Shown piece after piece: positions 46,683 through 50,180 of a DNA stretch of 64,000 nucleotides. The notes below the pieces were generated by a model, which ran no database searches, was not told where the DNA came from, and was given only the letters and a program-made list of their open reading frames with translations. The translations under genes and the position numbers were made by a program. Numbering within the stretch: the first letter of the stretch is position 1; each line of letters begins with the position of its first letter. The stretch comes from Corallococcus exiguus. GTDB taxonomy: Bacteria > Myxococcota > Myxococcia > Myxococcales > Myxococcaceae. The DNA lies in the NCBI RefSeq assembly GCF_965139275.1, contig NZ_CBCSLE010000005.1. One strand, written 5' to 3'.

Positions 46683-49600
46683 ATGACTGACACGACTGAA
46701 CTGTCCAAGGCCTACGAGCCCTCCGAAGTGGAGGCGCGGTGGTACAACCACTGGCTGGAGCGCGACTACTTCCGCGCCGAAGCCCCTTCCTCCAAGCCGC
46801 CGTTCAGCATCGTGCTGCCGCCGCCCAACGTGACGGGCAGCCTGCACATCGGCCACGCGCTCACCGCGACCATCCAGGACATCCTCACGCGCTGGAAGCG
46901 GATGAGCGGCTTCAACGCGCTCTGGCTGCCGGGCACGGACCACGCGGGCATCGCCACGCAGATGGTGGTGGAGAAGGAGCTCAAGAAGACGGAGGGCAAG
47001 AGCCGCCACGACCTGGGCCGCGAGGCGTTCCTCGAGCGCGTCTGGACGTGGAAGGGCAAGTTCGGCGCGCGCATCGGTGAGCAGCACCGCTACCTGGGCG
47101 CGTCCCTGGACTGGAGCCGCGAGCGGTTCACCATGGACGAGCAGTCCTCGGCCGCGGTGCGCGAGGTGTTCGTCCGGCTGTACGAAGAGGGCCTGATGTA
47201 CCGGGCCCAGAAGCTGATCAACTGGTGCCCGTCCTGCCGCACGGCCCTCTCCGACCTGGAAGTGGAGCACGAGGAGAAGAACGGCTCGCTCTGGCATATC
47301 CGCTACCCGGTGAAGGGCACGGAGCGCTTCCTCACCGTGGCGACGACGCGCCCGGAGACGCTGCTGGGCGACACGGCCGTCGCCGTGCACCCGGAGGATC
47401 CGCGCTACCAGGACCTCATCGGCAAGAGCGTGGCGCTGCCGCTCACCGACCGTGAGATTCCGGTCATCGCGGACGGCGAGCTGGTGAACATGGAGTTCGG
47501 CACCGGCGTGGTGAAGGTCACGCCCGCGCACGACTTCAACGACTACCAGACGGGCCTGCGCCACAAGCTGCCGATGCTGTCCATCCTGGACGAAGCGGCG
47601 CGGATGACGAAGGACACCGGCAAGTACGCGGGCCTGGAGAGCCGGGAGGCGCGCAAGCAGGTGCTGGCGGACCTGACGGAGCTGGGCCTGCTGGAGAAGG
47701 AGGAGCCGCACAAGCTGAACGTGGGCACCTGCCAGCGCTGCACCACGGTGGTGGAGCCGCGCCTGTCGCCGCAGTGGTTCATCAAGATCGAACCGCTGGC
47801 GAAGCCGGCCATCCAGGCCGTGGAGGAGGGCCGCACGAAGTTCGTCCCCGAGTCGTGGACGAACACGTACTTCCACTGGATGAACAACATCCACGACTGG
47901 TGCGTGAGCCGCCAGCTGTGGTGGGGCCACCAGATTCCCGCGTGGTACTGCGCGGCGTGCACCCCGGCGGAAGAGCGCTCGAAGGACACGGCGGACGTCA
48001 TCGTGTCTCGCACGGCGCCGGAGTCCTGCCCGAAGTGCGGCGGCAAGGAGCTGACGCAGGATCCGGACGTGCTGGACACCTGGTTCTCGTCCGCGCTGTG
48101 GCCGTTCTCCACGCTGGGCTGGCCGAAGCAGACGGCGGACCTCCAGACCTTCTACCCGACGTCCGTGATGGAGACGGGCCACGACATCATCTTCTTCTGG
48201 GTCGCCCGGATGATGATGATGGGCCTGCACTTCATGAACGATGTGCCCTTCCGCACCGTGTACCTGCACGCGATGGTGCGCGACGAGAAGGGCGAGAAGA
48301 TGTCCAAGACGAAGGGGAACGTCATCGATCCCTTGGACGTCATCCTCGGCGCGAAGGCGGAGTCGCTGCAGCCGTCCTTGCGCAACCGCTTCCCGCAGGG
48401 CATGCCCGCGCACGGCGCGGACGCGCTGCGCTTCACGCTGGCGTCGCTCACGCAGCAGGGCCGTGACATCAAGCTGTCGATGGACCGCCTGGGTGGCTAC
48501 AAGGCGTTCTGCAACAAGCTGTGGAACGCCAGCCGCTTCGCCCTGATGAACATGGGCGACTTCAGCCTGGACAAGACGCCGCTGGAGGGCCGCAAGCTGA
48601 CGCTGGCGGACCGGTGGATCCTCTCCCGCCTGCAGAAGGCCACCGAGGAGACGCGCGCGTCGCTGGAGGCGTTCGGCTTCGCGGAGGCCGCGTCCACGCT
48701 GTACCAGTTCCTGTGGGCGGAGTTCTGCGACTGGTACATCGAGCTGGCGAAGGGCTCGTTGTACGGCGACGACGCGGAGGCCAAGGACACCACGCGCGCG
48801 GTGCTGGTGACGTGCCTGGACCGCATCCTGCGGCTGATGCACCCGTTCATGCCGTTCATCACCGAGGAGATCTGGCAGAAGCTGCCGATGTCCCGGCCCA
48901 CGGAGAGCATCTGCATCGCGGCGTACCCGGCGCCGGAGACGGCGTGGGTGGACGCGGCCGCGGAAGGCGAGATGGCGCCGGTCATCGCGGCCATCGAGGG
49001 CCTGCGCACGCTGCGCGGCGAGAGCAACCTGCCGCCGTCCGCCAAGGTGAAGGCGGTGGTGCAGAGCCCGGACGCGACGACGCGCGAGCTGTTGGAGCGT
49101 TGGCGCGCGTACCTGATGCCGCTCGCGGGCCTGTCCGAGGTGGTGGTGGGCCCCCCGGGCGCCAAGCCTCCGCAGGCGGCGGCGTTCGTGAGCGGCAACC
49201 TGGAAATCTACGTGCCCCTGGCGGGCCTGGTGGACCTGGACGCGGAGCGCGACCGCCTGAAGAAGGAGATCGTCCGCTCCGAGCAGGAACTCACCGGTTT
49301 GCAGCGCAAGCTGGACAACCCGAACTTCGTGGCCCGTGCTCCGCCGGACGTGGTGGAGAAGGACAAGGCCCGGGTGGCGGAGCTCCAGGAGCGCACGGTC
49401 AAGCTGCAGGATCACCTCCAGCGCATCGCCCCGGAGCCCCCCATGTCCGAGACGCCGTCGCCGTTGCCGGGCAGCACCGAGTCCGAAGCCCCTGAAGCGT
49501 CCGAGTCCCCCGCGCCCGAGAGCGCCCATGTGAAGGTGGCCACCGAGCCGCAGGCACCGAAGGACGATGCGGTGAACCTGGGCCAGGAGCTGAAGGGCGA

Positions 49601-50180
49601 GATTGAAGCCGAAGAGGCTTCGCAGGCGCCCCAGGCCGCGGATCCGGTGGTGGAGGAGGCCCTCAACAAGCTGCGCGAGGGCACCAAGGAAGGACTGTCC
49701 CCGGCGGACCACCACGACCTGGGCGTCGCGTACATGAGCATGGGCCTCGTGGACGACGCGATGCGCGAGTTCGACCGGGCCAAGGAGGGCGGCGACGCCC
49801 GCGAGGCGCCGGAGGGTTCGGCGAAGCCGGTGAAGAAGGCCCCTGCGAAGAAGGCCTCCTCGAAGAAGGCGGCGGTGAAGAAGGCCCCTGCGAAGAAGGC
49901 CGCGGCGGTGAAGAAGGCCCCTGCGAAGAAGGCCTCCGCGAAGAAGGCGGCGAGCAAGAAGTCCGCCGCGAAGAAGGCCCCTGCGAAGAAGGCTTCCGCG
50001 AAGAAGGCAGCGGGCAAGAAGACGGCCGCGAAGAAGGCGGCGGTGAAGAAGGCTCCTGCGAAGAAGGCTTCGGCGAAGAAGGCTTCGGCGAAGAAGGCGG
50101 CGGGGAAGAAGACCGCCGCGAAGAAGGCCGCGGCGAAGAAGACCACTCGGGGCAAGCCGGCTCGCAAGGCGCGCCGGTAG
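46683..50180 (+). CDS. valS: Valyl-tRNA synthetase with about 245-aa C-terminal extension ending in a lysine/alanine-rich (KKAPAKKA) histone-H1-like tail
   Basis: Class I HIGH (LHIGHAL) and KMSKS (KMSKTKGN) motifs, editing domain, C-terminal coiled coil ...[35 protein letters not shown]. After the canonical end come an acidic S/P/E linker, one TPR-like helix pair ([22 protein letters not shown]), and about 110 aa of [12 protein letters not shown] repeats. Confidence 0.95.
49840..50165 (+). repeat. Coding tandem repeats (GCGAAGAAGGCCCCTGCGAAGAAGGCC...-like) encoding the AKKA tail of ValS
   Basis: Roughly 24-27-bp units repeated more than 10 times; visible directly in sequence 49840-50160. Confidence 0.6.

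Follow-up and report, generated by a model that had tools for sequence, protein, structure and literature searches.

Why should a myxobacterial valyl-tRNA synthetase (ValRS), an essential enzyme of translation, continue for 250 residues past its coiled-coil arm and end in a tail that resembles histone H1? The question is raised by the valS gene of Corallococcus exiguus (plus strand, 46683..50180), which lies on a stretch of 64,000 nucleotides from contig NZ_CBCSLE010000005.1 (assembly GCF_965139275.1) that was analysed as a whole and is called the window here. The extension consists, in order, of an acidic Ser/Pro/Glu spacer, a small helical module and a Lys-rich, histone-H1-like tail, and comparison with related sequences identifies it as a genuine, translated, lineage-specific addition to a housekeeping ValRS. 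An initial annotation, made from the letters of the window, had drawn attention to the extension; to that account the present analysis adds a similar tail on the ribosome-associated protein ObgE, a match between the helical module and the protein SgmX, the position of valS directly after the polarity gene romR, and the recognition that the module, not the tail, is the most conserved part.

A canonical synthetase body with an additional C-terminus

The valS open reading frame (ORF) encodes 1165 amino acids (aa), ends at a TAG stop codon (50178-50180) and is open throughout, with no internal stops and no frameshifts. Its product passes three ValRS equivalog models of NCBIfam, namely TIGR00422 (1137 against a cut-off of 612), PRK05729 (1255 against 704) and PRK14900 (1816 bits against 1783), and contains the Pfam domains tRNA-synt_1, Anticodon_1 and Val_tRNA-synt_C, together with the motifs HIGH (aa 55-58, 46845-46856) and KMSK (aa 539-542, 48297-48308, with KMSK(T) running through aa 543). 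Residues 2-861 of the 862-aa ValRS of Thermus thermophilus (1gax) align with aa 6-915 (E 5e-240), delimiting a canonical body of aa 1-916 (46683..49430, plus strand). The body closes with the C-terminal coiled-coil tRNA-binding arm (aa 851-915, 49233..49427, plus strand; Pfam PF10458, E 1.2e-18), which AlphaFold2, given the C-terminal 321 residues, models as two long helices with a predicted local distance difference test score (pLDDT) above 95. In the Thermus ValRS complex, as described in the 1gax and 1ivs work, this coiled coil is said to touch the elbow of the tRNA.

Because the alignment to 1gax stops at aa 915, with ...LQDHLQRI (49404-49427) as its last residues, aa 916-1165 (49428-50177) constitute an additional 250 residues, just where the initial annotation had placed the continuation of the frame, near 49430. 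By its family matches the valS product counts as a genuine ValRS that belongs to the long-form family PRK14900. The alignment to that model reaches well into the C-terminal extension (query 1-1104 to model 3-1020 of 1044), so that the long form already belongs to a catalogued family; the entry (NF011492 in NCBIfam) supplies the name of a long-form valine--tRNA ligase and attaches no function to the extension.

The first part of the extension is a disordered, acidic Ser/Pro/Glu spacer (aa 917-962, 49431..49568, plus strand), for which AlphaFold2 gives no secondary structure and a pLDDT of about 43-51. The isoelectric point (pI) of aa 917-1010 is 4.2 and the net charge -15, in keeping with the acidic linker first described. 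At the other end stands the polycationic tail (aa 1046-1165, 49818..50177, plus strand), which finishes in KPARKARR. Its 120 residues include 45 Lys, 44 Ala and 4 Arg, with a pI of 12 and a net charge of about +48, and the initial likening of this region to the very basic Lys/Ala/Pro tails of histone H1 and AlgP thus holds. Lysine makes up 37.5% of the tail as against 5.5% of the synthetase core (binomial tail 5e-26), and the Lys:Arg ratio is 45:4 as against 50:61 in the core, in a genome of 69% GC. Among all six frames of the 64-kb window no other K-rich stretch was found, so that the ValRS tail is the sole one.

The tail has an internal periodicity at both the protein and the DNA level. KK dipeptides follow one another at a spacing of 5 residues in 19 of 20 cases, defining a pentapeptide KK-x-x-x, and AlphaFold2 leaves this (KKxxx)n array fully disordered (pLDDT <50). 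The underlying tandem DNA repeat (49828..50141, plus strand) has a period of 15 bp and 20.7 copies (Tandem Repeats Finder score 298, 76% matches), a unit shorter than the 24-27 bp that had been read from the letters. The GC content of third codon positions (GC3) in the valS frame stays at 0.89-0.90 all through the extension. An antisense ORF across the same region (49412-50167, 251 aa, FFAAAFF...) was considered and set aside as a by-product of the stop-free repeat, GC3 favouring the plus-strand frame.

Searches of curated families place the tail among histone-H1-like sequences. The Pfam family HC2 (PF07382) matches aa 1048-1162 with 45.5 bits, above its gathering threshold of 40, in a composition-driven match that signifies resemblance and not common descent. 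The best matches of the tail outside ValRS in NCBIfam are likewise H1-like models (E 3e-12), of which NF038053 and NF038052 (Hc2) give the tail alone 47.1 and 34.4 bits, below their cut-offs of 80 and 135. A fragment of the same protein from C. coralloides (P0021) bears the name 'histone H1-like repetitive region-containing protein' from the annotation pipeline PGAP.

Conservation of the extension

The valS locus was compared with its best 80 matches in a scan of one genome per species, a sample that covers Corallococcus, four Myxococcus species, Archangium, Cystobacter and metagenome-assembled genomes (MAGs) of Myxococcaceae and Myxococcales in its 17 closest loci (L001-L017), that takes in Acidobacteriota, Bdellovibrionota, Gamma- and Betaproteobacteria and others, at about 50% identity, in the remaining 63 (L018-L080), and that lies outside Anaeromyxobacter, Sorangium, Nannocystis and Haliangium. 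The best match is that of Corallococcus praedator (92% identity), which puts the window in Corallococcus or a close relative and bears out the myxobacterial origin presumed in the initial annotation. An acidic-then-basic extension continues in frame for about 130-363 aa beyond the coiled coil in 16 of the 17 closest loci; the seventeenth (L013), from a long-read MAG, looks like a copy with a frameshift. In all 63 non-myxobacterial loci, ValRS ends 0-11 residues past the coiled coil, and the earlier statement that ordinary bacterial ValRSs are without such a tail is true of every one of them. Within this sample, therefore, the extension is kept across Myxococcaceae-type myxobacteria, and the ValRSs of the other bacteria are without it. 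The initial annotation had allowed that the extension might prove to be ubiquitous among orthologues and already characterised. Of this, a shared and catalogued extension was found, common to Myxococcaceae-like genomes and included in PRK14900; ubiquity is contradicted by the 63 other loci, and literature searches found no publications on the myxobacterial ValRS extension or on Lys tails of bacterial synthetases.

What is conserved differs from one part of the extension to the next. The tail ranges from 88 to 220 aa in length across the myxobacterial loci and is not alignable in sequence; its net charge lies between +42 and +59 in most of them, and the extreme C-terminus retains the form (K/R)A(K/R)RR across the set. 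The spacer varies in both length and sequence, with a net charge of -12 to -34 in the Myxococcaceae-like loci and of only -3 in one divergent MAG (L015), and the orthologues of divergent MAGs (L012, L015 and L016) have much more Arg in the tail. The retention of charge and terminal motif in spite of sequence drift, together with a Lys:Arg ratio so skewed in a GC-rich genome, indicates selection on charge and on lysine, as opposed to drift or mis-assembly.

An assembly error, or a tail that forms a separate ORF, was one way in which the initial annotation might have failed, and both are ruled out by the open frame, by its coding-like GC3 and by 16 independent orthologues with the extension in frame. 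The short, stand-alone 'module + tail' proteins P0011 and P0015 might be taken for products of gene fission, but their contigs, from long-read MAGs, show valS shattered into several ORFs, and a gene broken into so many pieces marks these proteins as frameshift artefacts. P0147, a candidate separate protein, proved to be a read-through chimera of valS and nadC. In the long-read MAG assemblies L013, L081 and L082 valS is split, apparently by frameshift errors, and such splits give rise to spurious small 'TPR + basic tail' proteins in the databases.

A helix-capped single tetratricopeptide repeat

Between spacer and tail lies the conserved helical module (aa 963-1037, 49569..49793, plus strand), supported by alignment, by AlphaFold2 and by a match to the NCBIfam model of SgmX. 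In the alignment of 39 ValRS C-termini it contains a near-invariant block preceded by a semi-conserved VDLxxELKxEL motif, and a trimmed alignment of 29 sequences has 19 invariant columns; on these alignments the module, and not the tail, is the best-conserved part of the extension. It is missing from Archangium, from Cystobacter and from three divergent MAGs, which keep the acidic linker and the basic tail only.

AlphaFold2 predicts four helices in the module, at aa 966-980, 988-1002, 1007-1019 and 1023-1035. Modelled alone, the module has a mean pLDDT of 83, and the hairpin formed by its last two helices (aa 1007-1035, 49701..49787, plus strand) reaches 90-97, as against about 90 when these helices are modelled within the C-terminal 321 residues. 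As the output carries no inter-domain confidence, the position of the module relative to the enzyme body lies outside the reach of the model. The hairpin has the features of a tetratricopeptide repeat (TPR). The Pfam models TPR_2 (17.7 bits, E 0.004) and TPR_1 (13.2 bits) match it below the gathering threshold of 27, and the canonical TPR positions L7, G8, Y11, A20, F24 and A27 are all filled, as read from the sequence, so that in the predicted structure it has both the antiparallel helix A/helix B hairpin and the consensus residues that define a TPR. The top Foldseek matches are all TPR proteins (MamA, consensus TPRs, FimV TPR3 and HOP TPR1), superposing with a root-mean-square deviation of about 0.5 A over 30 residues, with E-values that are non-significant for so short a query. 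A profile search of 1.84 billion representatives found many multi-TPR proteins, in each of which positions 41-70 of the module profile match 5-11 repeats. The single TPR-like helix pair of the initial annotation is accordingly retained in a fuller form, since the unit is, on the structural model, a helix-capped single TPR of which the last two helices are the TPR hairpin.

The same tail and the same module on other proteins

A homologue search with the coiled coil and the extension returned ValRS fragments first and then many proteins that share the HC2-like tail only, and a word-indexed search with the linker and the module returned ValRS fragments only, with no other protein context. Prominent among the proteins that share the tail is ObgE of Corallococcus, Archangium, Stigmatella and Myxococcaceae MAGs. 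In three examples, from Corallococcus sp. CA054B (P0062), Archangium violaceum (P0065) and Stigmatella hybrida (P0127), the C-terminal tail is about 110 aa long with a basic end. ObgE thus parallels ValRS in the same lineages, with a similar tail fused to the C-terminus of a translation- or ribosome-associated protein, and differs from it in being another host enzyme and in possessing neither acidic spacer nor TPR module; no specific literature on the ObgE tail was found. Carriers elsewhere include RsfS, DksA, trigger factor, HU, adenylate kinase, an S1-domain RNase, NYN/S1 RNA-binding proteins and a few hydrolases and acyltransferases, and for the most part the carriers are ribosome, RNA or nucleoid proteins. 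Among the best 120 matches no aminoacyl-tRNA synthetase other than ValRS has the tail.

H1-like Lys/Ala/Pro tails also occur on housekeeping proteins of diverse bacteria, including adenylate kinases (P0040, P0055 and P0101), RsfS of Elusimicrobium (P0105), a trigger factor (P0129) and DksA-like proteins (P0047-P0066), and the NCBIfam adenylate kinase model PRK13808 includes such a tail.

The 75-aa module has relatives of its own. Of 18,950 NCBIfam models, the one that matches it best is that of SgmX, in which positions 843-924 of 1065 align with module residues 2-74 (E 1.3e-8); the match to the second family, GltE (E 3e-4), covers only the TPR of the module. The match to the SgmX model (NF052243) is local, at 33.6 bits against a cut-off of 1800, and on this sequence evidence the relation is one of shared-module similarity and not of membership. 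In SgmX of Myxococcus xanthus, a protein of type IV pili formation, TPR12-14, which follow residue 802, make up the M-domain that binds MglA-GTP (PMC7668184, PMC9811614). The module covers the segment of SgmX that precedes TPR12 and TPR12 itself, and the SgmX-like unit reads DLxxELxxE, helix, HYxLGVAYxxMGLxDxAIxEF; ValRS has one TPR, whereas SgmX has fourteen, three of them in the M-domain.

The profile of the whole module (70 residues) also aligns to a composite unit of the large TPR proteins P0227, P0272, P0248 and P0168, for which SgmX is the best curated family. An hhalign comparison of the ValRS module with such SgmX-like modules gives a probability of 99.5% over 71 columns, a figure that is partly circular because the SgmX-like segments had been chosen with the same profile. 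The half of the module that precedes the TPR, compared alone with the SgmX-like proteins, scores only marginally, at no more than 8.7 bits where shuffled sequences reach 6.3. A search with the SgmX-like C-terminus of P0227, aimed at the SgmX of Myxococcus, returned only TPR proteins of Nitrospirota and Acidobacteriota, so that it is the NCBIfam model that connects the module with SgmX proper; the evidence comes from this hidden Markov model and from SgmX-like proteins of other phyla, not from a direct alignment to M. xanthus SgmX. In the four large proteins, and in matches from Nitrospirota and Thermoanaerobaculia, an acidic FFDLxxELxxE, a helix and HYNLGVAYKEMGLLDEAIxEF occur together in one to three copies. 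A 'capped TPR' of this kind seems, from the recurrence of the pattern, to be an unnamed module that is found repeatedly outside Myxococcota.

Genomic context

The genes around valS stand in the order CheW-like, romR, valS and nadC. The romR orthologue (45367..46629, plus strand; longest ORF from 45283) is recognised by the Pfam domain Response_reg and encodes 420 aa if it starts at 45367, the probable start. A receiver domain is followed by about 250 aa of Pro-rich repeats that are almost perfect (PPGARPPGAPPPGAM...), and the C-terminus is rich in Glu, as in the architecture of RomR. Long spurious ORFs arise from the romR repeat in its other frames and on the opposite strand. Upstream of romR is a CheW-domain protein (44341-45249, plus strand), the counterpart of MXAN4462, and valS follows romR by 53 bp in the same orientation, an order conserved in related loci. 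The same arrangement was described for M. xanthus by Leonardy et al., with MXAN4462 (two CheW domains), MXAN4461 (romR) and MXAN4460, 'similar to Val-tRNA synthetases' (PMC2034494); unpublished work cited there reported MXAN4462 as needed for fruiting body formation. That valS adjoins a polarity gene may be a coincidence, and it is taken here as no more than a lead.

Downstream, nadC (50184..51068, plus strand; TIGR00078, 303 bits) has an alternative GTG start at 50190 after a GGAGG. This Shine-Dalgarno-like sequence overlaps the valS stop codon, and the GTG of nadC follows 4-10 nt on, at 50184 or 50190; the overlap and the close start suggest, from the sequence, that translation of valS and nadC is coupled. 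A promoter and terminator scan found no terminator-like sites on the plus strand between romR, valS and nadC, and an Rfam and tRNA scan found no leader RNA near valS. Elsewhere in the window is a gene for tRNA-Sec with anticodon TCA (33463-33561, minus strand; Rfam RF01852, 68.9 bits), which implies a selenoprotein system in the genome.

Possible roles of the extension

What the analysis shows is the anatomy and conservation of the extension, its predicted disorder and helices and its family matches; RNA or ribosome binding, any effect on the Km of the enzyme and a partner for the module are inferred. In the reading that we prefer, and hold at about an even balance of belief, the tail would, by analogy with other polycationic arms and on the evidence of its composition, act in cis as a non-specific polyanion-binding arm for tRNA or ribosomes, alongside a partner-binding TPR module. 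Such an arm would make tRNA more concentrated near the enzyme, or hold ValRS on ribosomes, polysomes and similar structures rich in RNA. The role put forward in the initial annotation, nucleic-acid binding of a non-specific kind that would help tRNA capture or tether the enzyme, is plausible and agrees with the Lys-rich domains of eukaryotic synthetases and with the H1-like composition. The extension would be a diblock polyampholyte, in which the acidic spacer could shield the tail until a polyanion such as RNA displaces the spacer, and the TPR module would most likely bind a protein partner. Binding to tRNA or rRNA, and so to the ribosome, is favoured over other ligands because the tail comes right after the coiled coil that contacts the tRNA elbow in the Thermus complex and because ObgE, which carries a similar tail in the same lineages, is ribosome-associated.

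Several observations weigh against this interpretation. The composition of the tail fits tRNA, rRNA, DNA, polyphosphate or an acidic membrane equally well as a ligand, and the ValRSs of other bacteria function without a tail, so that it meets no evident catalytic need. The tail occurs as well on adenylate kinase, lysophospholipid acyltransferase and alpha/beta-hydrolases, which have no obvious link to RNA, and may thus be a general device for localisation or solubility. Finally, since the module is missing from Archangium, Cystobacter and some MAGs, it cannot be essential to the role of the tail. The preferred reading and its rivals are computationally inseparable.

Binding of the tail to chromosomal DNA, which would tether ValRS to the nucleoid or give it a moonlighting, architectural role, is unlikely yet has an appreciable chance of being right. 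It draws on the HC2 match, on the H1-like DNA-binding models that are the best matches of the tail outside ValRS, on the PGAP label of the C. coralloides fragment, on HU proteins with the same tail and on the DNA binding of AlgP and PhaF tails (PMC9239181). These matches are compositional, however, and the H1-like cut-offs of NCBIfam are not reached, while both the host enzyme and its lineage-mate ObgE act on RNA or ribosomes and not on DNA. The coupling of transcription and translation in bacteria, which makes tethering to DNA hard to distinguish from tethering to RNA, was also counted against the proposal.

The preference for lysine suggests, by analogy, another ligand. A tail of this kind could dock ValRS and ObgE onto polyphosphate or its granules during starvation and development, sequestering or regulating translation factors, a proposal to which we assign a small chance. 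AlgP, whose KPAA tail carries a charge of +55, reaches polyphosphate granules through that tail (PMC9239181), and Lys-rich disordered regions of ribosome and translation factors of E. coli bind polyphosphate in a manner abolished by Lys-to-Arg substitution (PMC12345225), which accords with 45 Lys to 4 Arg in the C. exiguus tail despite the GC content of the genome. The tail is, however, without the acidic, serine-rich context of PASK motifs, and the Arg-rich tails of L012, L015 and L016 would, from the E. coli data, be expected to bind polyphosphate more weakly.

A slighter chance still attaches to the possibility that the module is the primary determinant, recruiting ValRS to a protein or a site, for instance the polarity machinery, with the tail as an accessory. 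Here the conservation of the module, its best family match in SgmX, the MglA-GTP binding of SgmX TPR12-14 and the conserved position of valS behind romR all point the same way. Yet the module has one TPR only, where a functional unit usually has three (PMC9811614), its similarity to SgmX ahead of the TPR is marginal and the hhalign probability partly circular. Moreover, SgmX-like modules are common in TPR proteins of Nitrospirota and Acidobacteriota and so are not specific to polarity, the gene adjacency may be incidental, and Archangium and Cystobacter do without the module. A bolder form of the idea arises from the near-invariance of a module resembling SgmX TPR12 together with the position of valS behind romR throughout the family. 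In it the MglA/RomR/SgmX polarity network, or some other specific partner, would have ValRS as its client, with the tail carrying tRNA or ribosomes along, and on sequence evidence we think this improbable.

The weakest explanation, a functionless, neutral low-complexity expansion or an artefact of assembly or annotation, could appeal to the slippage-prone 15-bp repeat, to the wide variation of the tail among species and to the frameshift-broken valS genes of several long-read MAGs, but it is very improbable and is largely refuted by the comparative data, in that independent isolates and MAGs have the extension in frame, net charge and a terminal KARR persist while sequence drifts, Lys is preferred against GC pressure, a near-invariant folded module stands between linker and tail, and the split ORFs sit in genes broken into many pieces, as is typical of assembly error.

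Relation to known appended domains and significance

The preferred reading, a tRNA- or ribosome-binding tail with a partner-binding module, has its closest functional analogy in eukaryotes. Yeast ValRS is among the synthetases with a Lys-rich appended tRNA-binding domain, and to our knowledge such domains are described as absent from prokaryotic synthetases and are regarded as a eukaryotic innovation. Lys-rich disordered domains appended to eukaryotic synthetases bind tRNA non-specifically and improve its capture (PMC6213541, PMC3306390). The N-terminal extensions of yeast and human ValRS, LysRS and AspRS resemble the myxobacterial tail in being disordered, Lys-rich, non-catalytic extensions in cis; they are N-terminal, shorter, predicted to become helical on binding and not composed of tandem pentapeptides, whereas the myxobacterial ValRS carries at its C-terminus about 120 aa of (KKxxx)n after an acidic spacer and a TPR module. 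The two are not homologous in sequence, and the likeness is one of analogy only.

Within bacteria the comparison is with H1-like tails such as those of Pseudomonas AlgP and PhaF, Chlamydia Hc1 and Hc2, the H1-like proteins of Bordetella and Burkholderia, actinobacterial HupB and mycobacterial Ku, which share with the ValRS tail its composition, short tandem repeats, disorder and very high positive charge. Tails of this class bind DNA, as KPAA peptides of AlgP do (PMC9239181). The carriers of those tails are nucleoid or granule proteins, whereas the carrier here is an essential translation enzyme, and the repeat unit is KPAA in the H1-like tails as against a KK+3 pentapeptide in ValRS. To judge from the sequences, the likeness is compositional and probably convergent.

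Should the tail prove dispensable, it would be a lineage-specific low-complexity decoration that is already listed in databases. Should ValRS instead be a client of the polarity network, improbable as that is, a bacterium would be organising its aminoacylation or translation in space, in connection with motility or development. The conserved one-TPR module points to a specific partner of a housekeeping synthetase, and the case is a tractable one, as the genetics of M. xanthus is good and the gene there is MXAN_4460. A bacterial ValRS with a much longer, H1-like tail would be an independent, convergent counterpart of the eukaryotic appended domains. Taken together, the tails of ValRS and ObgE suggest that translation factors in myxobacteria are fitted with arms that are disordered and polycationic, and such arms bear on the way in which ribosomes, the nucleoid or polyphosphate serve as centres for the organisation of the bacterial cytoplasm.

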